Source of the DNA: a virus
IMG/VR virus record: IMGVR_UViG_3300033072_000542
Direction: 5' to 3' (one strand)
DNA: 64,000 bases
In this document: positions 25,905-53,949 of the stretch, piece after piece
Layout of the letters: every line of letters begins with the position of its first letter
Numbering within the stretch: the stretch's first letter is position 1
The notes under the pieces: model-generated
Told to the model about the DNA's origin: nothing
Database searches by the model: none
The model's input: the letters and a program-made list of their open reading frames with translations, nothing else
Position numbers and translations under genes: made by a program

Positions 25905-26168
25905 TCAGGATTTCTTCGGCTTTGTGGCGTCAGGCAACATGGACACAAACGCATTCAGCGTTGATGCCTTGTCAATAATTTCTTTTTCTGATGGATATTT
26001 TGGATAGCCTGGATGTTTTGGTGTCTCTGCACCTTTTGATTTTGCAACATCACAGTCCATTGCGAACTGGTTGGCTATTTTTTCTCGTTCGCCGAAATAG
26101 TCTGATTCAAGCATATCTTTTGCCATCTTCAGTAATTCTAAGCGAATCTCAAACGGACTCATACTCAT
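25905..26168 (-). CDS. Hypothetical protein
   Basis: 87 aa. RBS AGGAG upstream. Confidence 0.35.
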   Translation of the reverse strand: MSMSPFEIRLELLKMAKDMLESDYFGEREKIANQFAMDCDVAKSKGAETPKHPGYPKYPSEKEIIDKASTLNAFVSMLPDATKPKKS

Positions 26169-26194
26169 GTTTTCTCCTGTGTTGTGTATGTGTA

Positions 26195-26488
26195 AATGGT
26201 GAGTTATTCTGTTACGAGGAAACTCACCGAAACCCTAGTCAGCGTTTAGGCTGCCAATGCGAACTTTTCATCGTTTGCGTTTACTTTATTTAGTTTTTAT
26301 ATCTACTCTGATAAGTTGTCCACTTCTTTACTCTTTGCCCTGTCGAAACCAAGTGCATCCCCATCAGAAACACATCAGAGGTCTTTTTACAAAATACTCC
26401 CAGTCCAATGTGTTTTTGGTGGAGATGGGGGGATTCGAACCCCCGTCCAGAACACCTTTCGAGTTGCTTCATACAACCATATTTTTAT
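26195..26488 (-). ncRNA. ssrA: Two-piece (circularly permuted) tmRNA (ssrA)-like gene
   Basis: Acceptor piece ...GGACGGGGGTTCGAATCCCCCCATCTCCACCA occupies about 26418-26480. A self-complementary spacer follows. The coding piece starts GGGGATGCACTTGGTTTCGACAGGG at 26362, with G3-U70 and a GGGGAUG/CAUCUCC acceptor pairing. The tag frame GCA AAC GAT GAA AAG TTC GCA TTG GCA GCC TAA (ANDEKFALAA) is at 26246-26278. A GGTGAGTT...AACTCACC hairpin follows. Confidence 0.7.
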
Positions 26489-26713
26489 TTATTCAATCAC
26501 AATCTCATTCTCATCACAAGAGGTCATTTCACCATCACAATAAATGCTATACTTAAAACCACCATCAGGAAATGGTGTATCTTTTGTCCATGAAGGAACA
26601 TACATGATAACACTATTTGTTAGCCAAAACTTATCTTCAGATTCAAACACTTTCCATTTGAACTTGCTTGTGCCATTCTTATGATCCACATTATAGCGAA
26701 TGTAATATCTCAT
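26489..26713 (-). CDS. Hypothetical protein
   Basis: 74 aa ORF. Confidence 0.3.
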   Translation of the reverse strand: MRYYIRYNVDHKNGTSKFKWKVFESEDKFWLTNSVIMYVPSWTKDTPFPDGGFKYSIYCDGEMTSCDENEIVIE

Positions 26714-46834: not shown

Positions 46835-46991
46835 TATGCGATCCTATGTGTTGGGAGTGGTGTGTTCGATTCAGTAACCGATAATATAGCCATAACAAAA
46901 AGCACCACCACTGGTGACTTTTTGAGCATTTGTTTCCTTTGACCTAAGTCAATACTGGTATTTATATCGTCAGCATGACTGGAAACTTGAT

Positions 46992-47067
46992 GGTCCGCCG
47001 TGCAGGAATCGAACCCACATTCATCGGGTAGAAGCCGATTGTATTATCCATTATACTAACGGCAGAC
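46992..47067 (-). tRNA. tRNA-Arg (anticodon TCT)
   Basis: Cloverleaf by eye. Acceptor GTCTGCC/GGCGGAC, T-arm GTGGGTTCGATTCCTGCAC, anticodon loop CTTCTAC. Confidence 0.7.
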
Positions 47068-47156
47068 ATTTTGAAACATGCTACTTCTTAGCGAGGTTGG
47101 TTTGGAATCCAACTAACATGCTTCAAAATGGGAACTCTTACGAATTCCCCAAACTC

Positions 47157-48587
47157 TTACAGAACCGCGTAGCGGTCATCCATAATAGTTTTAAGCATTA
47201 CTGCTTCTGGTGTGAAAGATTCTAAGTCACCTGCAAGTAGTGGTTTCACAACTGCTGGCGAGAATCCAGACACAAGAGCGGTACCGCTTTTGTCGAACTT
47301 CACAGGTGCATTACCGTATGAAGCATTCAGATTCCAGAATACAACTTTTGGTAGTTTGTATCCTGCGTTCTCGTATTTACGTGCCATCATTTTATATGCA
47401 GAATCATCATGTTTTACACATGCGTTGAATTGCATATCAGACAAAATCAATACCATTTCTGGCATTTCTTTTTCTGGCACGTTACCATTAACTGCAACAC
47501 TCAAAATTTTATCGAATGCTTTGTGCAAGTCGGTTGACATATCCCAATTAGATTTAACCATTTGGTCAATCTTTTGGTTGATGTTACCTTTCAAGTGCAA
47601 CAGTTCTGGTTTGCTTGAGAAAGTCAAGAATGTATCTTTGAACTTTCCGGTGTTTTTGTCTGCAAGATACAATCCCAATGAGACTGCAACTTCCATACAT
47701 GTTAGACCTGATTTAGATGCAGGACCACCAGCACGACAAGACATTGAACCTGAAACGTCAACTAAAGGCAGAATGTTTGCATCACCAACAAAGTTTGGCA
47801 GAGCCTCCCATTGTTTTTGAATTAAATCTAATTCTGTTTTGTCAAAAGTAACGCCATATGTAGCGATGCGACCTTTTAGCACATCATATGGATACACGGC
47901 ACCTGCATTCACCTTAACGTCAGGAGTATCTCCCTTAACCAATGCTTCAACGTATTTCGCATACATTGGTGTGTTACGATTGAATGCTTTTTTGTAACGT
48001 GCATGTGCTACAGATGGAACATGTGAAAAGTTAATTTCATTCCAGTCTTTTGCACACATTTGTGTTTCAACAACCTTAGTCAACGCAACTAAAGATTTAC
48101 GATAGAACTTTGGTGACATTCCGAAGAACTCACGAATTTCTGCCGCAATCTTACCTTGACGAGGAGTCCACTTTGCCGCCAATCCATTACGTGCTCGTAA
48201 CGCATCACCAAGCATTGTGTATGCCTCTGCTTTCAATTCTTTTGAATCAAAAACAAAGATATCATCCCAACGTCCCAATTCAGGAACTTTGTGTAGCAAC
48301 GCTTTGGCTGCTTCAACGTCAGTTTTTTCCAGATACTTTAAGATATCACGGAACAATTGACGTTCACCAGACCCACCACGTGCGTCACGTGCCCAAGCCG
48401 CAACACGCAATGCCAAGTCTTTATCTTGGACATACGCAGCCGTAAATGCAGGGATAATATCCTTACCACGTGACGCACCAATGTTATAGAATAAATCTAC
48501 AACGGCGTTCGCAGTTGATTTACGTGCCTTCATACCATTTGTGGTACGTGCTTCTTGGTTTACTACCGCTTCTACGAATGTTGACAT
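47157..48587 (-). CDS. vWA (MIDAS) domain protein, possible Ro60/TROVE-like RNA-binding protein
   Basis: About 476 aa from ATG (RBS AAGGAG); the listed ORF begins at an upstream TTG. A C-terminal vWA with DxSGSM MIDAS motif (LPLVDVSGSMS) is preceded by a ~280 aa helical domain. Sits inside the tRNA/tRNA-mimic array. Confidence 0.45.
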   Translation of the reverse strand: MSTFVEAVVNQEARTTNGMKARKSTANAVVDLFYNIGASRGKDIIPAFTAAYVQDKDLALRVAAWARDARGGSGERQLFRDILKYLEKTDVEAAKALLHKVPELGRWDDIFVFDSKELKAEAYTMLGDALRARNGLAAKWTPRQGKIAAEIREFFGMSPKFYRKSLVALTKVVETQMCAKDWNEINFSHVPSVAHARYKKAFNRNTPMYAKYVEALVKGDTPDVKVNAGAVYPYDVLKGRIATYGVTFDKTELDLIQKQWEALPNFVGDANILPLVDVSGSMSCRAGGPASKSGLTCMEVAVSLGLYLADKNTGKFKDTFLTFSSKPELLHLKGNINQKIDQMVKSNWDMSTDLHKAFDKILSVAVNGNVPEKEMPEMVLILSDMQFNACVKHDDSAYKMMARKYENAGYKLPKVVFWNLNASYGNAPVKFDKSGTALVSGFSPAVVKPLLAGDLESFTPEAVMLKTIMDDRYAVL

Positions 48588-48919
48588 TATGAACTCCTTT
48601 TCAATCAACAGGTTAATTTTTGCGTTTCAAATTACAAGTTTGATGCTTTTTATTTGCTGAACTTAACCTAAAAATAAACAGAATAGTTTTCTTCTTTTTG
48701 TTTTAAGTGAGAACTCGAAACTCACTTTGAAGGTCCGTCACACGACAACTACCTTCAAAGCCCATACAGGCTCCAGTAGTTAACATCAGTTTCCTTCATT
48801 ACGGCATCGGACATTACTCCGATAAGTAAAAGTTTGCTGAACCTATTCTAAAATCAATAAACAGATTATACACTAAAAACTTTGTAGAGTAAATAGGTAA
48901 ACCGAACGTTTACCAGATT

Positions 48920-48996
48920 TGGTGCCCCAAGCGAGATTCGAACTCGCAGAATTTTGATTTTGAATCAAACACGTATACCGATTCCGTCATCGGGGC
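48920..48996 (-). tRNA. tRNA, anticodon CAA (Leu-type anticodon, short variable arm)
   Basis: Acceptor GCCCCGA/TTGGGGC. T-arm GCGAGTTCGAATCTCGC. Anticodon arm TTTGA-TTCAAAA-TCAAA. Discriminator A, CCA encoded. Confidence 0.6.
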
Positions 48997-49000
48997 ATAT

Positions 49001-49077
49001 TGGTGCGGAAGGAGGGAGTCGAACCCTCAAAACTCGGATTTTAAGTCCGATACGTATGCCAATTCCGTCACAACCGC
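49001..49077 (-). tRNA. tRNA, anticodon TAA (Leu-type, short variable arm)
   Basis: Anticodon arm TCGGA-CTTAAAA-TCCGA. T-arm GAGGGTTCGACTCCCTC. Two U-U mismatches in the acceptor stem. Confidence 0.5.
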
Positions 49078-49078
49078 A

Positions 49079-49642
49079 TCACATTGTTGGACCGTTTCCG
49101 TTTCTGAAACCAACTTCACCACCTTCTTCTTTGATTCGTTTCATAACGTCTTCAAAAAGAATTGGACGAAAATCAGTTTGTTCAACGCAAACACAATGAT
49201 ATCTAGGATCAATTTTATTACCGATACGAACACGACCAGTATGAAGATGGCCGTGAATGTTAACACCAAATCTTCCAAGACTTTCTGGATGAATTGGAAT
49301 ATGTGAAAGAATCATTCCGTTCATTACATGATAAGCACGAAGTTCCCTAAAGAAAACTCGGTATTCATCATCACGAAAAATATCATGGTTACCACGAATA
49401 AGAACTTTATCACCGTTAAGTCTATGCATGATGCTAAGTGCTTTACGATTGATAACAACGTCACCAAGATGATAAACTTTATCGTTTGGTCGGACAGTTT
49501 CGTTCCAACGTTTTACCATTTCCTCATCCATTTCATTTGGATCAGTCCATGGGCGAATCTTTTCACCTGTTACTGAGTCGGTGAATCTACACACACCAGC
49601 ATGACCAAAATGTGTGTCACTTACAAGAAATACTGATGGCAT
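49079..49642 (-). CDS. Calcineurin-like metallophosphoesterase
   Basis: LVSDTHFGH and GNHD motifs. Confidence 0.65.
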   Translation of the reverse strand: MPSVFLVSDTHFGHAGVCRFTDSVTGEKIRPWTDPNEMDEEMVKRWNETVRPNDKVYHLGDVVINRKALSIMHRLNGDKVLIRGNHDIFRDDEYRVFFRELRAYHVMNGMILSHIPIHPESLGRFGVNIHGHLHTGRVRIGNKIDPRYHCVCVEQTDFRPILFEDVMKRIKEEGGEVGFRNGNGPTM

Positions 49643-49658
49643 ATTAAACTCCTAAAAA

Positions 49659-49735
49659 TGGTGCCGCCTCCCGGGATCGAACCAGGTTCCATGGATTTTC
49701 AATCCACCGCAATGACCACATTTGCTAAAGCGGCA
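49659..49735 (-). tRNA. tRNA-Phe (GAA)
   Basis: Acceptor GCCGCTT/AGGCGGC. Anticodon arm GTGGA-TTGAAAA-TCCAT. T-arm CCTGGTTCGATCCCGGG. CCA encoded. Confidence 0.8.
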
Positions 49736-49810
49736 TGGTGCTTCCACCGAGAATCAAACTCAGGTCTCGCCCGTACCAAGGGCGTGTATTATCACTATAC
49801 TATGGAAGCA
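49736..49810 (-). tRNA. tRNA-Thr (GGT)
   Basis: Acceptor GCTTCCA/TGGAAGC. Anticodon arm CGCCC-TTGGTAC-GGGCG. Confidence 0.75.
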
Positions 49811-49817
49811 CGGACTA

Positions 49818-50192
49818 TTATTGTTTAGTCCACTCAATAATCGTATCTTTAGTTACCTTACGTTGTTCACCAGTCCCATACTTTGTTACCATTGCAACGA
49901 TGCGTGGCACAATGTATTGTGTGAAGTAATAAGGTTGCTTGAGATTCTTTTCGCAACGGCTGTATGCTTTACCTGCAAGATATGCTCTTGCTAAGTGTGT
50001 CGCACGTGCTTCATTACGAACGTCAATCTTACGATGATTGGTAAGACTATGAAGTTTCCATGAAAGAGAAGTGTAGTTGGGTTCTTCCTTACTACAATGT
50101 TTCATGTGCTTCTTTATTTTGTTTTCCTCAAAACGAATAATTTGAGGTTCAAGTGCCAAATGTTTGGCTTTAATTTTCAATTCTACTGACAT
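49818..50192 (-). CDS. Hypothetical protein (within tRNA array)
   Basis: 124 aa ORF. Confidence 0.35.
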   Translation of the reverse strand: MSVELKIKAKHLALEPQIIRFEENKIKKHMKHCSKEEPNYTSLSWKLHSLTNHRKIDVRNEARATHLARAYLAGKAYSRCEKNLKQPYYFTQYIVPRIVAMVTKYGTGEQRKVTKDTIIEWTKQ

Positions 50193-50312
50193 AAATTTTC
50201 CTTAATTGTTAAATGATTTTGTTAAAAAATAAAATGAACAACAAGAAAACTTACGGCGGCTTTTTAATCTACAATGAAGAATCTTTCATAGTGATTTCCT
50301 TTCATAAAAAAT

Positions 50313-50387
50313 TTGGTGGCTCTAATGGGAATTGAACCCATATCAATACGTTTTAGAGGCGTTTGCATTACCATCATGCTCTAGAGC
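50313..50387 (-). tRNA. tRNA with CUCUAAA anticodon loop (putative anticodon CTA, amber-suppressor-like)
   Basis: Acceptor GGCTCTA/TAGAGCC. D-arm GCAT-GATGGTA-ATGC. T-arm ATGGGTTCAATTCCCAT. The anticodon loop CTCTAAA sits on a weak or bulged stem. Confidence 0.45.
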
Positions 50388-50407
50388 CATACATGTATAT
50401 ATGTATT

Positions 50408-50482
50408 TGGTGCTTCGTGACAGGATCGAACTGCCGACATTCCACTTGTAAGGAGGCTACTCTACCGCTGAGTTAACGAAGC
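50408..50482 (-). tRNA. tRNA-Val (TAC)
   Basis: Acceptor GCTTCGT/ACGAAGC. Loop CTTACAA. Anticodon stem has G-A and U-U mismatches. Confidence 0.6.
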
Positions 50483-50488
50483 GAAATT

Positions 50489-50563
50489 TGGGGAGTTATA
50501 CCAGAATCGAACTGGTGATAACGGAATCACAACCCGTGGTTTTACCACTAAACTAATAACTCC
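50489..50563 (-). tRNA. tRNA-His (GTG)
   Basis: Acceptor GGAGTTA/TAACTCC. Anticodon arm ACGGG-TTGTGAT-TCCGT. CCA not fully encoded. Confidence 0.7.
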
Positions 50564-50569
50564 ATAAAC

Positions 50570-50683
50570 AGGATACCTTTTACTCTGCACTACCATTGTG
50601 CTAATCTTTCCATCAGGAAAAATATAGGATTCGAACCTATAACAGGAGGCTTTCATTGCATCTTTTGTTGCTGAATGTATCCT
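50570..50683 (-). ncRNA. tRNA-mimic RNA with permuted arm order (YrlA/Y-RNA-like candidate)
   Basis: Closing stem AGGATAC/GTATCCT encloses a canonical T-arm (ATAGGTTCGAATCCTAT), an acceptor-like hairpin ATTTTTC-CTGATG-GAAAGAT and a canonical D-arm (GCAC-AATGGTA-GTGC), in that order. Confidence 0.45.
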
Positions 50684-50687
50684 AAAC

Positions 50688-50762
50688 TGGTGCGGGGTAA
50701 GAGAATCGAACTCTTAACTAAACGTTGGCAACGTCTGATTTTACCATTAAACTAACCACGCA
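50688..50762 (-). tRNA. tRNA-Gly (GCC)
   Basis: Anticodon arm AGACG-TTGCCAA-CGTTT. T-arm AAGAGTTCGATTCTCTT. Confidence 0.7.
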
Positions 50763-50767
50763 AAAAC

Positions 50768-50842
50768 TGGAGCGGGATACCAGAATCGAACTGGTGACTT
50801 GAACTTGGAAGGATCTCGTTTTACCATTAAACTAATCCCGCA
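50768..50842 (-). tRNA. tRNA-Gly (TCC)
   Basis: Acceptor GCGGGAT/ATCCCGC. Loop CTTCCAA. Weak anticodon stem. Confidence 0.6.
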
Positions 50843-50880
50843 TGTTACCCATTTAACGATATGGGCATCGGGGTCTGTTT

Positions 50881-51366
50881 CTAGGCCGCTAGACTTTTCA
50901 ATCTGTCGGCTGCGTATGATGCGGCGAATGCATTTGGCTTAACCAATGGCACAACGTTACACATACCTTTAATATAACCTACCGCTTCGTTAACAACGAT
51001 GCTTGAATTATATAGTTGATTTGGGTTAATGTCAAGGTGAACTTCAATGTCATTCGCAATCATTTCCGACAATTGCAAATACATATCTGCCACTTTGTAA
51101 ACTTCATTCATCAAACGCATACGTGGTTTGTTCCGCAACTTTTCAAAGTCACGTTCACGTGTGATTTGACCAAAGATTTTACAACCGTGTTTGCCATCAA
51201 TATGCACAACGATAGCAATAATGTAATCGGCATACCAATCACCATTTACTTTAACTTTTTCAGAATCGCAACCCAGATAAATTTTGGTATCTGGACCACA
51301 ATTTTCCACGTATGCTCTCACTTCTTCTAAGTCAATTTTTTCGTTATACATATTATTTCCTTTCAA
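50881..51366 (-). CDS. Hypothetical protein (within tRNA array)
   Basis: 161 aa ORF. Confidence 0.4.
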   Translation of the reverse strand: MKGNNMYNEKIDLEEVRAYVENCGPDTKIYLGCDSEKVKVNGDWYADYIIAIVVHIDGKHGCKIFGQITRERDFEKLRNKPRMRLMNEVYKVADMYLQLSEMIANDIEVHLDINPNQLYNSSIVVNEAVGYIKGMCNVVPLVKPNAFAASYAADRLKSLAA

Positions 51367-51371
51367 CGAAC

Positions 51372-51445
51372 TGGCACCCCGTCAGGGAGTCGAACCCCGG
51401 CCCTCAGTTTTGGAGACTGATGTGCTACCGTAACACTTACGAGAT
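51372..51445 (-). tRNA. tRNA-Trp (CCA)
   Basis: A1-U72 acceptor as in E. coli tRNA-Trp. Anticodon arm TCAGT-CTCCAAA-ACTGA. Confidence 0.65.
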
Positions 51446-51454
51446 ATAAACAAC

Positions 51455-51515
51455 AGGATCGTTTTTTACGGTTTAGATTAGAAGTCTAATGTAATTTTTT
51501 TGCTGAACCGATCCT
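51455..51515 (-). repeat. Inter-tRNA hairpin element, copy B (stem AGGATCG/CGATCCT, TTCAGCAAA motif)
   Basis: Same architecture as copies at 52293-52350 and 50570-50683 with compensatory changes in the stem. Flanked by GTTT on both sides. Confidence 0.5.
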
Positions 51516-51519
51516 AAAC

Positions 51520-51594
51520 TGGGTCCCGGCGAACGGAATCGAACCGTTACTGGTTGCGCTGGCCGTGCCTACCACTTACACTACAACCGGGAAA
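51520..51594 (-). tRNA. tRNA-like gene, anticodon arm not resolvable (possible pseudogene)
   Basis: Good acceptor TCCCGGT/GCCGGGA, canonical T-arm AACGGTTCGATTCCGTT, CCA encoded. No inverted repeat is available for an anticodon stem. Confidence 0.35.
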
Positions 51595-51597
51595 ACT

Positions 51598-51671
51598 TGG
51601 TACCTCCACCGAGAATTGAACTCAGAATTAGCGGTTATCAGCCGCTTGTTATACCATTTAACTACAGAGGT
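51598..51671 (-). tRNA. tRNA-Ile (GAT)
   Basis: Acceptor ACCTCTG/TGGAGGT. Anticodon arm AGCGG-CTGATAA-CCGCT. Confidence 0.75.
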
Positions 51672-51677
51672 AAAATT

Positions 51678-51752
51678 TGGTAGGTCCTGAGAGAATCAAA
51701 CTCCCACTTCAACGTTCGTAGCGTTGTGTAATATTCATTTTACTAAGGACCC
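51678..51752 (-). tRNA. tRNA-Arg (ACG)
   Basis: Anticodon arm CAACG-CTACGAA-CGTTG. T-arm GGGAGTTTGATTCTCTC. Confidence 0.7.
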
Positions 51753-51755
51753 ATT

Positions 51756-51830
51756 TGGTGGTGATGAGTAGAGTCGAACTACCACTTTGCTCCGTATGAA
51801 GGAGGTGCACTACCATTATGCTACATCACC
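51756..51830 (-). tRNA. tRNA-Met or Ile2 (CAT)
   Basis: Acceptor GGTGATG/CATCACC. Loop TTCATAC. Confidence 0.65.
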
Positions 51831-51835
51831 ATATT

Positions 51836-51912
51836 TGGATGCGGGTAGTGGTAACGCTCCACTCTCGGTAAGGCTTATGAGACCTTCCGGGTCAACTTGA
51901 CCTACCCGCTAT
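51836..51912 (-). tRNA. Atypical tRNA-like gene (anticodon CAT; non-canonical D and T loops)
   Basis: Acceptor GCGGGTA/TACCCGC. Anticodon arm AAGGT-CTCATAA-GCCTT. D hairpin GGTCAAGTTGACC. T loop AGCGTTA. Confidence 0.35.
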
Positions 51913-51916
51913 AAAC

Positions 51917-51990
51917 TGGTCTCGGTGGAGAGAATCGAACTCCCGACACATGGTCCCAAACCACGAGTTTTACCACTAAACCACACCGAG
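51917..51990 (-). tRNA. tRNA-Pro (TGG)
   Basis: C1-G72 acceptor. Anticodon arm CGTGG-TTTGGGA-CCATG. Confidence 0.75.
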
Positions 51991-51997
51991 TTATATT

Positions 51998-52073
51998 TGG
52001 TGCTCTCTGACGGAATCGAACCGCCTGTCTCCTGGTTACAAATCAGGCGCATCGCCAGCAATGCTTAGAGAGC
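51998..52073 (-). tRNA. tRNA-Thr (TGT)
   Basis: Acceptor GCTCTCT/AGAGAGC. Loop TTTGTAA. Confidence 0.65.
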
Positions 52074-52080
52074 GAAATTT

Positions 52081-52155
52081 TGGTGGAGGCCGAGGAAATC
52101 GAATCCTTCTAGACACTCTCCTTGCAAGGGAGAGCCGTAGCCCACTACTGCCCCC
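52081..52155 (-). tRNA. tRNA-Ala (TGC)
   Basis: G3-U70 pair. Anticodon arm TCTCC-CTTGCAA-GGAGA. Short D-loop. Confidence 0.7.
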
Positions 52156-52205
52156 AAAATAACTGATTACTTATCCTATTATACGCCATCAGTCAAGGCG
52201 AGATT

Positions 52206-52282
52206 TGGTGCCCTAGGAGGGACTCGAACCCTCAGAACTTGGTTTCTAAGACCAATACGTATACCAATTCCGTCACCAGGGC
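52206..52282 (-). tRNA. tRNA, anticodon TAG (Leu-type, short variable arm)
   Basis: Same scaffold as the genes at 48920 and 49001. Anticodon arm TTGGT-CTTAGAA-ACCAA. Discriminator A. Confidence 0.6.
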
Positions 52283-52292
52283 ATTATAAAAC

Positions 52293-52350
52293 AGGATTCG
52301 CTTTTTCTTTTTATTCCAAAAAAAGTTTAATTGTTTGCTGAAAGAATCCT
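52293..52350 (-). repeat. Inter-tRNA hairpin element, copy C (stem AGGATTC/GAATCCT)
   Basis: See copy B. Interior begins TTTCAGCAAAC. Confidence 0.5.
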
Positions 52351-52355
52351 TAAAG

Positions 52356-52434
52356 TGGCTCCGTATCAGGGAATCGAACCCTGCTAACCATTGATTAACA
52401 GTCAAGCCCATGCACCTTGCTCGGGTTCTACGGA
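52356..52434 (-). tRNA. tRNA-Asn (GTT)
   Basis: U1 start, discriminator G, loop CTGTTAA as in E. coli tRNA-Asn. Long D-loop. Confidence 0.55.
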
Positions 52435-52504
52435 ATAAAATAATTACAGGCTGTGAGCATCCTCCATTTAACTCTAACGATTACGTTAGAGCACCTATAA
52501 AACT

Positions 52505-52579
52505 TGGCGCCTCGTAGGAGAATCGAACTCCTGTTCTCCGCTGGACAGGCGGGCATAATAGCCATTATATTAACGAGGC
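52505..52579 (-). tRNA. tRNA-Asp (GTC)
   Basis: Acceptor GCCTCGT/ACGAGGC. Loop CTGTCCA. Discriminator G. Confidence 0.6.
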
Positions 52580-52585
52580 AAATTT

Positions 52586-52678
52586 TGGTGGAGTAACTTG
52601 GAGTCGAACCAAGAATGTTTACCACGAGGGGACGGATTTACAGTCCGCCGATGCACACGCCATAGCATCAATTACTCC
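52586..52678 (-). tRNA. tRNA-Tyr (GTA), type II
   Basis: Acceptor GGAGTAA/TTACTCC. Anticodon arm GCGGA-CTGTAAA-TCCGT. Long variable region. Confidence 0.6.
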
Positions 52679-52688
52679 AAAATCTTTA

Positions 52689-52763
52689 TGGTAGGGGCAC
52701 AGAGAATCGAACTCTGATTTACGGGTTAAAAGCCCGCTACTTTCGCCGTTAAGTTATACCCCC
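52689..52763 (-). tRNA. tRNA-Lys (TTT)
   Basis: Anticodon arm GCGGG-CTTTTAA-CCCGT. Confidence 0.7.
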
Positions 52764-52770
52764 ATGTTAG

Positions 52771-52845
52771 TGGTGCCTTGAGATGGATTCGAACCATCAC
52801 CGTATCAATTATGAGTTGACGGCACTACCTTTATGCTATCAAGGC
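52771..52845 (-). tRNA. tRNA-Met or Ile2 (CAT)
   Basis: Acceptor GCCTTGA/TCAAGGC. Anticodon arm GTCAA-CTCATAA-TTGAT. Confidence 0.7.
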
Positions 52846-53047
52846 ATTCTACCATATGTTAGTGTTACTACGTTATAGTCTGGCCTTAACCGTACCAGAG
52901 TTTGTTTTTAACGTTCAGACTTATTCCCTAAGCGTCCAAAGGGTCTTCGTCTTTCAATCAACCGATGTGTAGTCTAGTGCACCTAACCACACAGAGCGGA
53001 TTCACTATCCTGTGAGCACAGGAATCTTCCGTAACAACACTAACATA

Positions 53048-53122
53048 TGGCACTCCGTACCAGAATCGAACTGGTCTCTCCGCCTTGAAAGGGCAGCGTT
53101 CTAACCGATAAACTAACGGAGT
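53048..53122 (-). tRNA. tRNA-Glu (TTC)
   Basis: Anticodon arm CTGCC-CTTTCAA-GGCGG. Confidence 0.7.
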
Positions 53123-53177
53123 ATTTTTACTCTACAAATTTTTAATGAACATTGTTGATTTCTCAACGTATGCAAGT

Positions 53178-53205
53178 ATTATAACACACTTGCAAATTTT
53201 GTCAA
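53178..53205 (-). promoter_or_regulatory. Sigma70-type promoter for the tRNA transcript (TTGACA-N16-TATAAT)
   Basis: Reverse complement gTTGACAaaatttgcaagtgtgtTATAATact. Confidence 0.65.
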
Positions 53206-53231
53206 CAACTTTTTTCATCGTTGTTGTTTTT

Positions 53232-53309
53232 TTACAACTTGGAGTAGGGAGTGAGATTTGAACTCACGGCTTTACTGGTTTGCAATCAGTTCCCTTGGAC
53301 CGCTCGGGC
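53232..53309 (-). tRNA. tRNA-Cys (GCA)
   Basis: Loop TTGCAAA. Discriminator U. Confidence 0.6.
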
Positions 53310-53313
53310 ATCC

Positions 53314-53553
53314 CTACACTAATTTTTTTCTTGAACTACGGTGATTCTCATCACGGCGCATTGTCCAAGTGTATGATTCACCATCTGGCAAAATCTTATC
53401 TTCAACTGCATCAACACCAAACATGCCTACAATCTCTGTAGTGCCGTCGGTGATAGTTACAAACTCATCAATATATTTTGCCGCTTCCATCGCAATTAGA
53501 AGTGTGTTGAACTCACCTCTAACGAAACCTTCTTTATCAATCACTTTATACAT
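53314..53553 (-). CDS. Hypothetical protein
   Basis: The listed ORF 53314-53688 runs over both tRNA-Ser genes. The real start is probably the internal ATG at 53553 (RBS AAGGA). Confidence 0.35.
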   Translation of the reverse strand: MYKVIDKEGFVRGEFNTLLIAMEAAKYIDEFVTITDGTTEIVGMFGVDAVEDKILPDGESYTWTMRRDENHRSSRKKLV

Positions 53554-53564
53554 AATCATCCTTT

Positions 53565-53652
53565 TGGCGGAGAGTATCGGACTCGAACCGATGCGCCGCT
53601 TTCGCAACGACAGTTTAGCAAACTGCTGGTTTAACCACTCACCCAACTCTCC
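53565..53652 (-). tRNA. tRNA-Ser (GCT), type II
   Basis: Acceptor GGAGAGT/ACTCTCC. Long variable arm CGTTGC-GAAA-GCGGCG. Confidence 0.7.
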
Positions 53653-53659
53653 ATAAATT

Positions 53660-53751
53660 TGGCGGAAAGCGGAGGAGTCGAACCCCATCCCATTTCTGAG
53701 AACCCAGTTTTCAAGGCTGGTCGGCGCACCAACGCACCTGCATCACTTTCC
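53660..53751 (-). tRNA. tRNA-Ser (TGA), type II
   Basis: Acceptor GGAAAGT/GCTTTCC, discriminator G, loop CTTGAAA. Ends match E. coli tRNA-Ser(UGA). Confidence 0.6.
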
Positions 53752-53836
53752 ATTATTTGTTACCATACAAAAACATACTATCAGGAATTCAACCTGAGTC
53801 CGGCTACCGGTGTGACGCTACTAGAATGTTTTTGTA

Positions 53837-53911
53837 TGGCAGGGGTTACTGGATTCGAACCAGTGATACCGATTTCAAAGACCGGTGCCTTAGGCCTCTA
53901 GGCGAAACCCC
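53837..53911 (-). tRNA. tRNA-Gln (TTG)
   Basis: Anticodon arm CCGGT-CTTTGAA-ATCGG. T-arm ACTGGTTCGAATCCAGT. Confidence 0.65.
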
Positions 53912-53949
53912 AACAAATTTACTCTACAACTTTTTAATGAACAGTCTGT

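Follow-up and report, generated by a model that had tools for sequence, protein, structure and literature searches.

The 64,000-nucleotide stretch analyzed here from IMG/VR virus record IMGVR_UViG_3300033072_000542 (the window) is apparently part of a large phage genome. It contains a gene for a 476-amino-acid protein of the DUF2828/DUF7788 family and, on the same strand, five RNA elements that share one terminal structure, here called the handle. The protein is predicted to have the Ro60 fold, and comparison of its relatives points to a Ro60-fold family with its own class of modular, tRNA-mimicking partner RNAs, which is apparently undescribed and is widespread in cultured phages and bacteria. 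The locus probably encodes a phage ribonucleoprotein of the Ro60/Y-RNA type with a different handle, acting on tRNA damage, a reading in which we infer both the expression of the RNAs and their binding by the protein. Ro60 and the Y RNAs form a classic, still poorly understood RNA-surveillance particle, and a first-pass annotation of the window had proposed a Ro60-like protein with tRNA-mimicking, Y-RNA-like partners at this site. That proposal was supported in substance by the predicted fold, by same-strand linkage across phyla and by the tRNA-derived inserts of the RNAs.

Five handle RNAs upstream of the protein gene

Reading and scanning of the minus strand identified five elements in the window, E1 to E5, all on that strand and all of one architecture. 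From 5' to 3', each has a U-rich sequence, a 7-nucleotide (nt) arm that begins AG(G/A), three nucleotides and CAGCAA, an insert, a complementary 7-nt arm that ends in (C/U)CU, and GUU. The handle is the 7-bp terminal helix together with the single-stranded NNN-CAGCAA 3' of its 5' arm and the GU 3' of its 3' arm. In E1, E2, and E3 the 5' arm is followed by N-TTCAGCAA. The protein gene and the elements are as follows.

47157..48587, minus strand: DUF2828+DUF7788 protein gene, 476 amino acids, ATG at 48587; predicted N-terminal alpha-helical Ro60/TROVE-like ring domain and C-terminal vWA domain with a metal ion-dependent adhesion site (MIDAS), DxSxS (D277, S279, S281)
48610..48669, minus strand: E5, 60 nt; stem AGGUUAA/UUAACCU, then G-UU-CAGCAA; directly upstream of the protein gene
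48680..48849, minus strand: E4, 170 nt; stem AGAAUAG/CUAUUCU, then G-UU-CAGCAA; three to four hairpins in the insert
50570..50683, minus strand: E1, 114 nt; stem AGGAUAC/GUAUCCU, then A-UU-CAGCAA; between tRNA-Gly(GCC) and tRNA-His
51455..51515, minus strand: E2, 61 nt; stem AGGAUCG/CGAUCCU; between a tRNA-like gene and tRNA-Trp
52293..52350, minus strand: E3, 58 nt; stem AGGAUUC/GAAUCCU; between a tRNA-Asn-like gene and tRNA-Leu(UAG)

The distance from the Ro60-like gene, which is not a TROVE gene by sequence, ranges from 20 nt to 3.8 kb, and all five elements are upstream of it on the same strand. Exactly five zero-mismatch matches to AG-N6-TYMAGCAA were found in the window, all on the minus strand and between 48654 and 52350, and a covariance-model scan run without filters found no further copies in the 64 kb. 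The covariance model built from the small elements (R1) scored E5 at 79.1, E2 at 76.8, and E3 at 57.9 bits, all three being seeds of R1. The closing stem was present in the minimum-energy fold of every element tested; that of E1 also contained the T-arm, a closed acceptor-like hairpin, and the D-arm, and the fold of E4 (-48.6 kcal/mol, z = -3.66) was not equaled in stability by any of 200 shuffled sequences. Neither ARAGORN nor Rfam called a tRNA on any of the five, and Rfam at its gathering scores reported only tRNAs and the transfer-messenger RNA (tmRNA) in the window.

The first-pass annotation had described E1, E2, and E3 with closing stems AGGATAC/GTATCCT, AGGATCG/CGATCCT, and AGGATTC/GAATCCT, exactly as found here. 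The 'two half-copies' that it placed on either side of 48690-48830 were in fact both ends of E4, together with the 5' end of E5; each of the two is a complete element. Its statement that each element lies immediately 3' of a tRNA was right in position for E2 and E3, but the genes concerned are tRNA-like and were missed by both ARAGORN and Rfam.

In the tRNA-like gene between tRNA-Ile and E2 (51520-51597, minus strand) the acceptor stem has 7 bp (UCCCGGU/GCCGGGA), the T-arm is canonical, and a CCA end is present, but the D/anticodon region is aberrant; relatives have no gene at that place. The gene beside E3 (52358-52436, minus strand) is a probable tRNA-Asn(GUU); its anticodon stem has 4 bp and its D-loop 11 nt, and the acceptor stem is mismatched at its base. 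At the equivalent position relatives have a normal tRNA-Asn, just 5' of an E3-type element.

A DUF2828/DUF7788 protein with a predicted Ro60 fold

By sequence, the 476-amino-acid protein belongs to the DUF2828/DUF7788 family, exceeding both Pfam cut-offs (DUF7788, PF25043, 163.4 bits, 6e-48, cut-off 27.1; DUF2828, PF11443, 74 bits, 1e-20, cut-off 29), and PHROG 850, 'RNA-binding protein', matched it over its full length at 6e-141. DUF2828 had been named as the alternative to TROVE in the first-pass annotation, and on sequence it was the alternative that held: TROVE (PF05731) gave no match in Pfam at E ≤ 1, and the vWA_Ro60 model (PF25045) reached only E = 0.11 and 12.8 bits against a cut-off of 27.7, so TROVE membership by sequence was rejected. 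A search of the Protein Data Bank (PDB) with the single sequence gave no TROVE match, scans against NCBIfam and PADLOC returned nothing, and a sequence profile ranked Ro60 first in the PDB, yet marginally (E = 0.036) and over the start of the MIDAS only.

The predicted structure gave a different result. An AlphaFold model made with an alignment of 137 sequences (40-91% identity) had a predicted local distance difference test score (pLDDT) of 91.4 and a predicted template modeling score of 0.90; pLDDT was 44 when the single sequence was used. In a Foldseek search of the PDB the six best matches were all Ro60/TROVE structures aligned over their full length, among them Xenopus Ro60 with RNAs (E = 9e-9, template modeling score 0.61), and the matches beyond these six covered the vWA domain only, with E above 4e-3. 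The model has a helical-repeat ring followed by a vWA domain with a MIDAS, as in Ro60. The MIDAS motif is VDVSGSM, in which D277, S279, S281, and M282 were invariant in 137 homologues, and the DxSGSM-type vWA domain of the original description was thus confirmed. The Ro60/TROVE architecture claimed there stands as a predicted fold and does not stand as a sequence assignment. Because it has no TROVE match in sequence and yet has the predicted fold, the product is most aptly called a Ro60-like member of the DUF2828/DUF7788 family, with a predicted TROVE-like helical ring and a MIDAS vWA domain.

The family is large. Among 8,000 candidates scored from a collection at 90% identity there were 7,896 matches, and 6,121 clusters at 50% identity matched the protein at E ≤ 0.001. 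Cultured phage records with a member numbered 706, among them Felix O1-like, Listeria P100/A511-like, Staphylococcus, and Campylobacter phages and mycobacteriophages of cluster L; members were also found in gut Firmicutes and Akkermansia. LeBron gp53 is 32% identical to the 476-amino-acid protein over its full length, and in cluster L the gene is already labeled 'Ro-like RNA binding protein'. No literature on the function or RNA partners of DUF2828/DUF7788 was found, with a mention in Burroughs & Aravind 2016 (RNA repair systems) or Avesson et al. 2011 still possible.

The handle covaries and is linked to the gene across phyla

Handle elements were sought in two sets of loci. The close relatives were 78 IMG/VR loci with proteins 56-85% identical to that of the window; the distant set comprised 80 bacterial and archaeal loci (32-71% identical) and included Chloroflexi, Akkermansia, Lachnospiraceae, Ruminococcus, Treponema, a Woesearchaeota assembly, and the isolate Anaerotignum lactatifermentans DSM 14214. 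In a looser scan, 73 of the 78 IMG/VR phage loci had at least one match to the stem and CAGCAA on the gene strand, which, together with the five exact motif matches on one strand of the window, shows that the elements exceed chance expectation. A stricter scan, in which AG at the start and GT after the 3' arm were required and stem positions 1 and 2 were thus fixed (A-U and G-C), identified 171 unique elements in the 78 loci, located among tRNA genes or directly upstream of the gene. Two to four Watson-Crick pair types occurred at each of stem positions 3, 4, 6, and 7, so that the compensatory changes first seen among three window stems appeared as Watson-Crick covariation across all 171 elements.

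The linkage to the gene was close in the distant set as well. With 'beside the gene' defined as the gene strand up to 1.2 kb upstream or 0.7 kb downstream (135 kb over the 80 loci), 109 strict handles were beside the gene, 3 were elsewhere on that strand (474 kb), and none were on the opposite strand; up to six copies occurred in tandem. In the near-gene zones CAGCAA was found 220 times on the gene strand versus 38 times on the other strand, and for 68% of the 220 the arm 3 nt upstream of CAGCAA had a complementary 7-mer, versus a background of 8-15%. Since this test was not pre-selected for pairing, it is less biased than covariation in the aligned subset, which showed many double changes in the closing stem and an inner hairpin and a signal that collapsed when the partner was slid by one column; the aligned subset was given less weight because it had been selected for pairing. 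G-U pairs made up 12 of the 707 stem pairs in the bacterial set. A handle, either open or in the closed form described below, was present in 69 of the 80 loci, and 7 of the remaining 11 were cut within about 300 nt upstream of the gene. No Rfam 15 family covered the handle elements in the window or in 13 bacterial loci.

Handles also flanked the gene in nine of the ten cultured phages that were checked.

E. coli Felix O1-like phage fjerdesal: 4 handles, in the tRNA array just downstream of the gene
Mycobacteriophage LeBron: 3 handles, directly downstream of gp53
Listeria phage P100: 3 handles, upstream of gp165
Staphylococcus phage 6ec: 3 handles, downstream of the gene
Enterococcus phage iF6: 3 handles beside the gene
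Campylobacter phage F371: 2 handles beside the gene
Synechococcus phage BUCT-ZZ01: 2 handles beside the gene
Klebsiella phage FBKp34: 2 handles beside the gene
Vibrio phage VH7D: 1 handle, overlapping the start of the gene match
Xanthomonas phage XbC2: 0 handles under the strict pattern

These positions bear on the possibility that the elements act in cis, as leader or autoregulatory sequences of the DUF2828 mRNA, the protein binding its own 5' untranslated region and not free small RNAs. In most bacterial loci, and in the case of E4 and E5, the start of the gene is indeed preceded first by a promoter-like site and then by the elements. However, they are downstream of the gene in LeBron, Staphylococcus 6ec, fjerdesal, and locus L095, the other three window copies are 2-4 kb upstream with tRNAs and open reading frames between, and up to six tandem copies with different inserts are not leader-like, all of which makes regulation in cis an improbable explanation.

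The other reading suggested by location, already given in the first-pass annotation as the case that would overturn its proposal, is that the elements are terminators or RNase processing hairpins of the tRNA operon that do not accumulate. Their place between tRNAs, the U-rich flanks, and the terminal helix would agree with it. Yet the helix is AT-rich, has only 7 bp, encloses a structured insert of 40-240 nt, and has no U run directly after it; the strand-specific, single-stranded CAGCAA motif and the tRNA-derived inserts are conserved; tandem elements occur beside the gene in bacteria without a tRNA operon; and closed versions occur inside tRNA-like genes. A role as mere terminators or processing hairpins is therefore very unlikely. 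A pseudoknot between CAGCAA(C) and the GUUGU tail was also considered and was rejected on topology, there being no loop between the 3' arm and the tail.

Other structured RNAs occurred near the handles at two loci. On the 364-kb contig IMGVR_UViG_3300043418_000114 (L044), a GOLLD RNA (203.5 bits; L044:2022-2485, plus strand) lies inside the tRNA array that holds the handle RNAs and the DUF2828 gene. On a Micavibrio-binned contig, a freshwater-1 RNA (RF02979, 82.7 bits; L103:1007-1068, plus strand) lies 270 nt upstream of the DUF2828 gene; it was judged probably incidental, its 13-nt motif core being absent from the other 163 loci.

The inserts resemble parts of tRNAs

Between the arms of the handle, the inserts display tRNA parts: anticodon-stem-loop mimics in E2, E3, and E5 and a permuted tRNA core in E1, with a larger multi-hairpin domain in E4. 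The mimics are UUAGA-CUUCUAA-UCUAA in E2 (51473-51489, anticodon-like UCU), UCAAA-CUUGUAA-UUUGA in E5 (48627-48643, anticodon-like UGU), and in E3 the hairpin CUUUUU-UUGGAAU-AAAAAG (52307-52325), which has a 7-nt anticodon-like loop (GGA). The E1 core consists of a T-arm, a closed acceptor-like hairpin, and a D-arm, and E1-type elements recur in related loci. The E4 hairpin GUGAG-UUUCGAGUU-CUCAC is conserved in relatives, in which E4-type elements are usually directly upstream of the gene.

Among 124 unique small elements (≤70 nt), a loop of exactly 7 nt on a stem of 5 bp or more was found in 78, compared with a mean of 11.9 in shuffled sequences. The anticodon-loop signature Y-U-NNN-R, nearly always CU-NNN-AA, was found in 49 of the 124 (shuffles: mean 0.8, maximum 4), and the anticodon-like triplets were UGU (16), UUU (8), UCU (5), GGA (5), UGA (3), GUU (3), GUA (2), GUC (2), and others. 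The T-loop motif was present in 38 of 57 mid-size elements (80-139 nt), which had two arrangements: the E1/YrlA-like order of T-arm, closed acceptor hairpin, and D-arm, and the normal order of D-arm, anticodon arm, and T-arm with a 3-bp mini-acceptor.

Such inserts could also mean that the handle RNAs are stable mimics of tRNA parts, serving as decoys or regulators for nucleases or other enzymes that bind tRNA, and that they work without the DUF2828 protein; the linkage would then reflect a shared pathway or operon, and the handle would be bound by another factor or by none. The tRNA-like inserts and anticodon-loop mimics are themselves well supported, and the phage elements are dispersed among the genes of tRNA arrays, as much as about 4 kb away from the protein gene. 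Across phyla, however, conservation lies in the handle and not in the inserts, the handle accompanies the gene even in genomes that have no tRNA array near it, and the Ro60 fold is known to bind partner RNAs of adjacent genes by their terminal stem (PMC4201824). Mimics acting independently of the protein are therefore considered unlikely, and a particle of the RNAs with the Ro60-like protein is preferred.

Closed handles inside tRNA-like genes

Many loci without an open handle had a circularly permuted one, in which the order is 3' arm, short loop (typically GNNA), 5' arm, and NNN-CAGCAA. All 36 of these closed handles were on the gene strand beside the gene, with none anywhere else, and they sit inside tRNA-like genes. 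A Lachnospiraceae assembly (L135:289-800, plus strand) contained three or four tandem tRNA-like genes with a closed handle in each. Three of these units have an acceptor stem, a D-arm, and a T-arm, with the handle replacing or adjoining the anticodon arm, and in one unit the closed handle is beside an intact anticodon arm (CUU). The Micavibrio-binned contig had one such unit. In Klebsiella phage vB_KpM_FBKp34 (L169:5003-5116, plus strand), the 114-nt gene annotated as 'tRNA-Asp' encodes an entire tRNA-Asp(GUC), CCA end included, in which the closed handle AACUUCU-UAGA-GAAGUUU and UA-CAGCAU forms an additional arm that separates the D-arm from the anticodon arm. Because this complete tRNA carries a closed handle, it may be both chargeable and able to bind the Ro-like protein. 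In E1 the arrangement is reversed: the handle is open, and a loop closes the acceptor stem of the tRNA-like core. The occurrence of two chain topologies for one presumed three-dimensional object is a strong argument for function at the RNA level.

The idea that the elements are inverted repeats acting as DNA was rejected on the strand-specific motif, the G-U pairs of the bacterial set, and the circularly permuted closed form. The same observations bear on whether they could be small selfish or mobile DNAs, or tRNA pseudogenes in decay, that end in short inverted repeats and happen to accumulate in tRNA regions. They are multi-copy, have 7-bp terminal inverted repeats and tRNA-derived pieces, and vary in number between related phages, as such elements might. 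Against this, their orientation relative to one gene is strictly the same across phyla, the 'repeats' vary in a compensatory way and tolerate G-U, a circularly permuted form exists, and no target-site duplications or transposase were seen, leaving a selfish or degenerate origin extremely unlikely.

Relationship to Ro60 and YrlA

The first-pass annotation had likened E1 to the bacterial YrlA RNAs. The order of T-arm, closed acceptor, and D-arm held, and in the alignment of E1 with the YrlA model (RF02553) these parts aligned well, but the score was 30.9 bits against a gathering score of 69 and the Ro60-binding stems were non-pairing and unaligned. The YrlA motif GNCGAAN0-1G near the 5' end (Chen et al. 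2014, PMC4201824) was absent from E1 to E5 by inspection, the conserved 5' motif being NNN-CAGCAA. YrlA membership of E1 was rejected on its low score and unaligned Ro-binding module; sub-threshold YrlA matches also occurred beside the gene in locus L106. The protein and its RNAs thus belong to neither the TROVE nor the YrlA family.

The likeness is one of organization. As in Ro60/YrlA systems, the partner RNAs are encoded within a few kb of the gene and on the same strand, and the handle RNAs are modular like YrlA, joining a tRNA-like module to a terminal stem that would be the protein-binding module; in the window the YrlA-like order is found in E1 only. As with Ro60 systems, RtcB is a neighbor in some bacteria and the phages that carry the system are rich in tRNAs. 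The protein family (PF11443+PF25043) differs from that of Ro60 in lacking a TROVE sequence match, and, unlike YrlA, many handle RNAs are about 55-65 nt long and carry an anticodon-stem-loop mimic only, while closed-handle versions occur inside complete tRNA-like genes. The 'Ro-like RNA binding protein' of cluster L and PHROG 850 are the same protein family under annotation labels only, and no paper on partner RNAs of these proteins was found. The survey of Chen et al. took in only genomes annotated with TROVE proteins (PMC4201824), and the DUF2828 set was therefore outside it.

Gene neighborhood in bacteria and phages

A census of neighboring genes by BLAST clustering showed an RtcB RNA ligase (PF01139, 2e-58) within three open reading frames of the gene in 11 of the 80 bacterial loci, directly downstream in eight of them, and two WYL/WCX-domain regulators upstream in 10-11 of the 80. 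With RtcB downstream and the paired regulators upstream, the order is WYL-WYL-handle RNAs-DUF2828-RtcB, and a conserved operon of Clostridia contains WYL, WYL/WCX, 1-6 handle RNAs, the DUF2828 gene, and RtcB (loci L132, L114, L129, L137, L138, L149, L151, L157, and others). This arrangement parallels rsr-yrlBA-rtcBA of Salmonella, an operon responsive to damaged tRNAs (PMC7790460). In Xanthomonas phage XbC2 an annotated RNA ligase is two genes from the DUF2828 gene. In the window phage and its relatives the Ro60-like gene is within the tRNA array, together with a PF04308 protein and a metallophosphoesterase. The L132 locus, from the cultured Anaerotignum lactatifermentans DSM 14214, also has a group II intron in or near the rtcB region (L132:9285-9381).

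A proposed particle acting on tRNA damage

The five RNAs would be transcribed with the tRNA array, or from a promoter of their own just upstream of the protein gene, and their tRNA-like spacing suggests that they would be cut out like tRNAs as stable species. Given that spacing from the flanking tRNAs, a short 3' tail would remain once RNase P had cleaved the next tRNA. The protein would recognize the handle much as Ro60 binds the terminal stem of Y RNAs, and the insert would serve as a display module of tRNA parts: a 5-bp/7-nt anticodon-stem-loop mimic with CU-NNN-AA, a tRNA core in which the handle replaces the anticodon arm, or a larger fold. Analogy and gene context suggest that the particle would act in response to tRNA damage. 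In phages, the favored role would be to counter host tRNA-cleaving defenses, and two variants may be envisaged: the mimics could be anticodon-loop decoys or substrates for anticodon nucleases, held together by the handle and protein, or tRNA-like cores could hold enzymes of repair or processing that recognize tRNAs at the Ro-like ring, as tethers. PrrC, PARIS, and enzymes of the colicin E5 and D types are known to target tRNAs for Lys, Thr, Asn, Tyr, Asp, and Arg.

Several observations weigh against this proposal. Besides the failure of the TROVE model to match, contact between protein and handle is suggested by co-location only. The 7-bp helix with NNN-CAGCAA is unlike the GNCGAAN0-1G or GGUCCGA helix of Y RNAs and YrlA. 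A canonical anticodon-like loop occurs in only about 40% of the small elements, and loops with U36/A36 may be favored by an AT-rich composition. No RtcB or other RNA ligase was found among the neighbors scanned near the window locus, and the functional analogy is soft since the role of true bacterial Ro60/YrlA is itself incompletely known.

If the proposal is right, it points to a second Ro60/Y-RNA branch with its own RNA handle, invisible to sequence searches, and gives DUF2828/DUF7788 a concrete, testable RNA partner. Handle RNA genes would account for conserved unannotated gaps in phage tRNA arrays. New kinds of tRNA mimic would be added, namely isolated anticodon stem-loops on a protein-binding scaffold and complete tRNAs with the handle as an extra arm, and these would be relevant to the arms race over tRNA-cleaving defenses such as PrrC, PARIS, and colicin-like or retron-associated nucleases.

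Resemblance to Dictyostelium Class I RNAs

In a search of a 4-kb region with all Rfam families, E3 matched the model of the Dictyostelium Class I RNAs (RF01414) over its full length at 35.5 bits (E = 3.5e-4), below the gathering score of 41.5. Two other elements scored 21.7 (L007:9133) and 28.1 bits (L103:661), and the model did not match the other elements searched. Class I RNAs are about 60 nt long and have a terminal 6-bp stem with compensatory changes and CCUUACAGCAA beside the 5' arm (Kjellin et al. 2021, PMC7919456). In their 11-nt motif U3, C6, C9, A10, and A11 are invariant, and the termini are AAG...CUGU (PMC7919456). The RNAs are abundant, developmentally regulated, and reported as unique to dictyostelids. 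Handle RNAs likewise have a single-stranded motif directly 3' of the 5' arm (N-U-A/U-CAGCAA in place of CCUUACAGCAA), comparable termini (A-AG...CU-GU), a length of about 60 nt, a variable remainder, and many gene copies. The stem, the CAGCAA core, and the termini A-G...C-U-G-U are common to both, with the spacer 1 nt shorter in the handle.

Unlike Class I RNAs, which have eukaryotic genes with a DUSE promoter element and a known direct binder in the RNA recognition motif protein Rnp1A (PMC7919456), the handle RNAs come from phages and bacteria, to which the DUSE promoter does not apply. Class I membership was rejected, all scores being below threshold and varying between copies, and the resemblance was kept. 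Because the scores are sub-threshold and the spacer is off by 1 nt, it is reported as a lead only. Four proteins were pulled down with DdR-21, one of the Class I RNAs, and among these proteins is the uncharacterised DDB_G0281243, which is conserved in all Dictyostelia (bioRxiv 10.1101/2020.04.05.026054). A joint reading, offered tentatively and with considerable doubt, is that the handle could be the signature of a very widespread RNA class partnering DUF2828-type Ro60-like proteins in phages, bacteria, archaea, and eukaryotes. Class I RNAs would then be its eukaryotic members, DDB_G0281243 or another dictyostelid protein would be a DUF2828/DUF7788 homologue, and the phage anticodon-loop versions would be decoys that disarm anticodon nucleases. 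If true, the link would be the first mechanistic lead for Class I RNAs.

Other features of the window

Other features around the protein gene and in the tRNA array were as follows.

46991-53912, minus strand: 27 tRNA genes
48594..48599, minus strand: Shine-Dalgarno-like AAGGAG, 6 nt 5' of the ATG at 48587, from direct sequence reading
48865..48893, minus strand: sigma-70-like promoter TTTACT-17-TATAAT, which would drive E4, E5, and the protein gene; from a consensus scan only (10/12 matches), which is not evidence of function
48896-48914, minus strand: terminator-like hairpin, ahead of the promoter-like site
49079-49642, minus strand: calcineurin-like metallophosphoesterase gene inside the tRNA array
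50881-51366, minus strand: gene for an RNase H-like PF04308 protein inside the tRNA array

The PF04308 gene is kept at the same place in relatives (L159 8096-8566). The only match in a megablast search against cultured phages was tRNA-Gly, and the window phage therefore has no close cultured relative among them. The array also includes a tRNA with anticodon CUA (50314-50388, minus strand), labeled 'Pyl' by ARAGORN and of the amber-suppressor type. Outside the array, at 26155-26531 on the minus strand, the window encodes a permuted (two-piece) tmRNA with the tag ANDEKFALAA (beta_tmRNA 148.8 bits, tmRNA_permuted 127.8 bits), and a permuted tmRNA was also present in the related loci L012 and L102.

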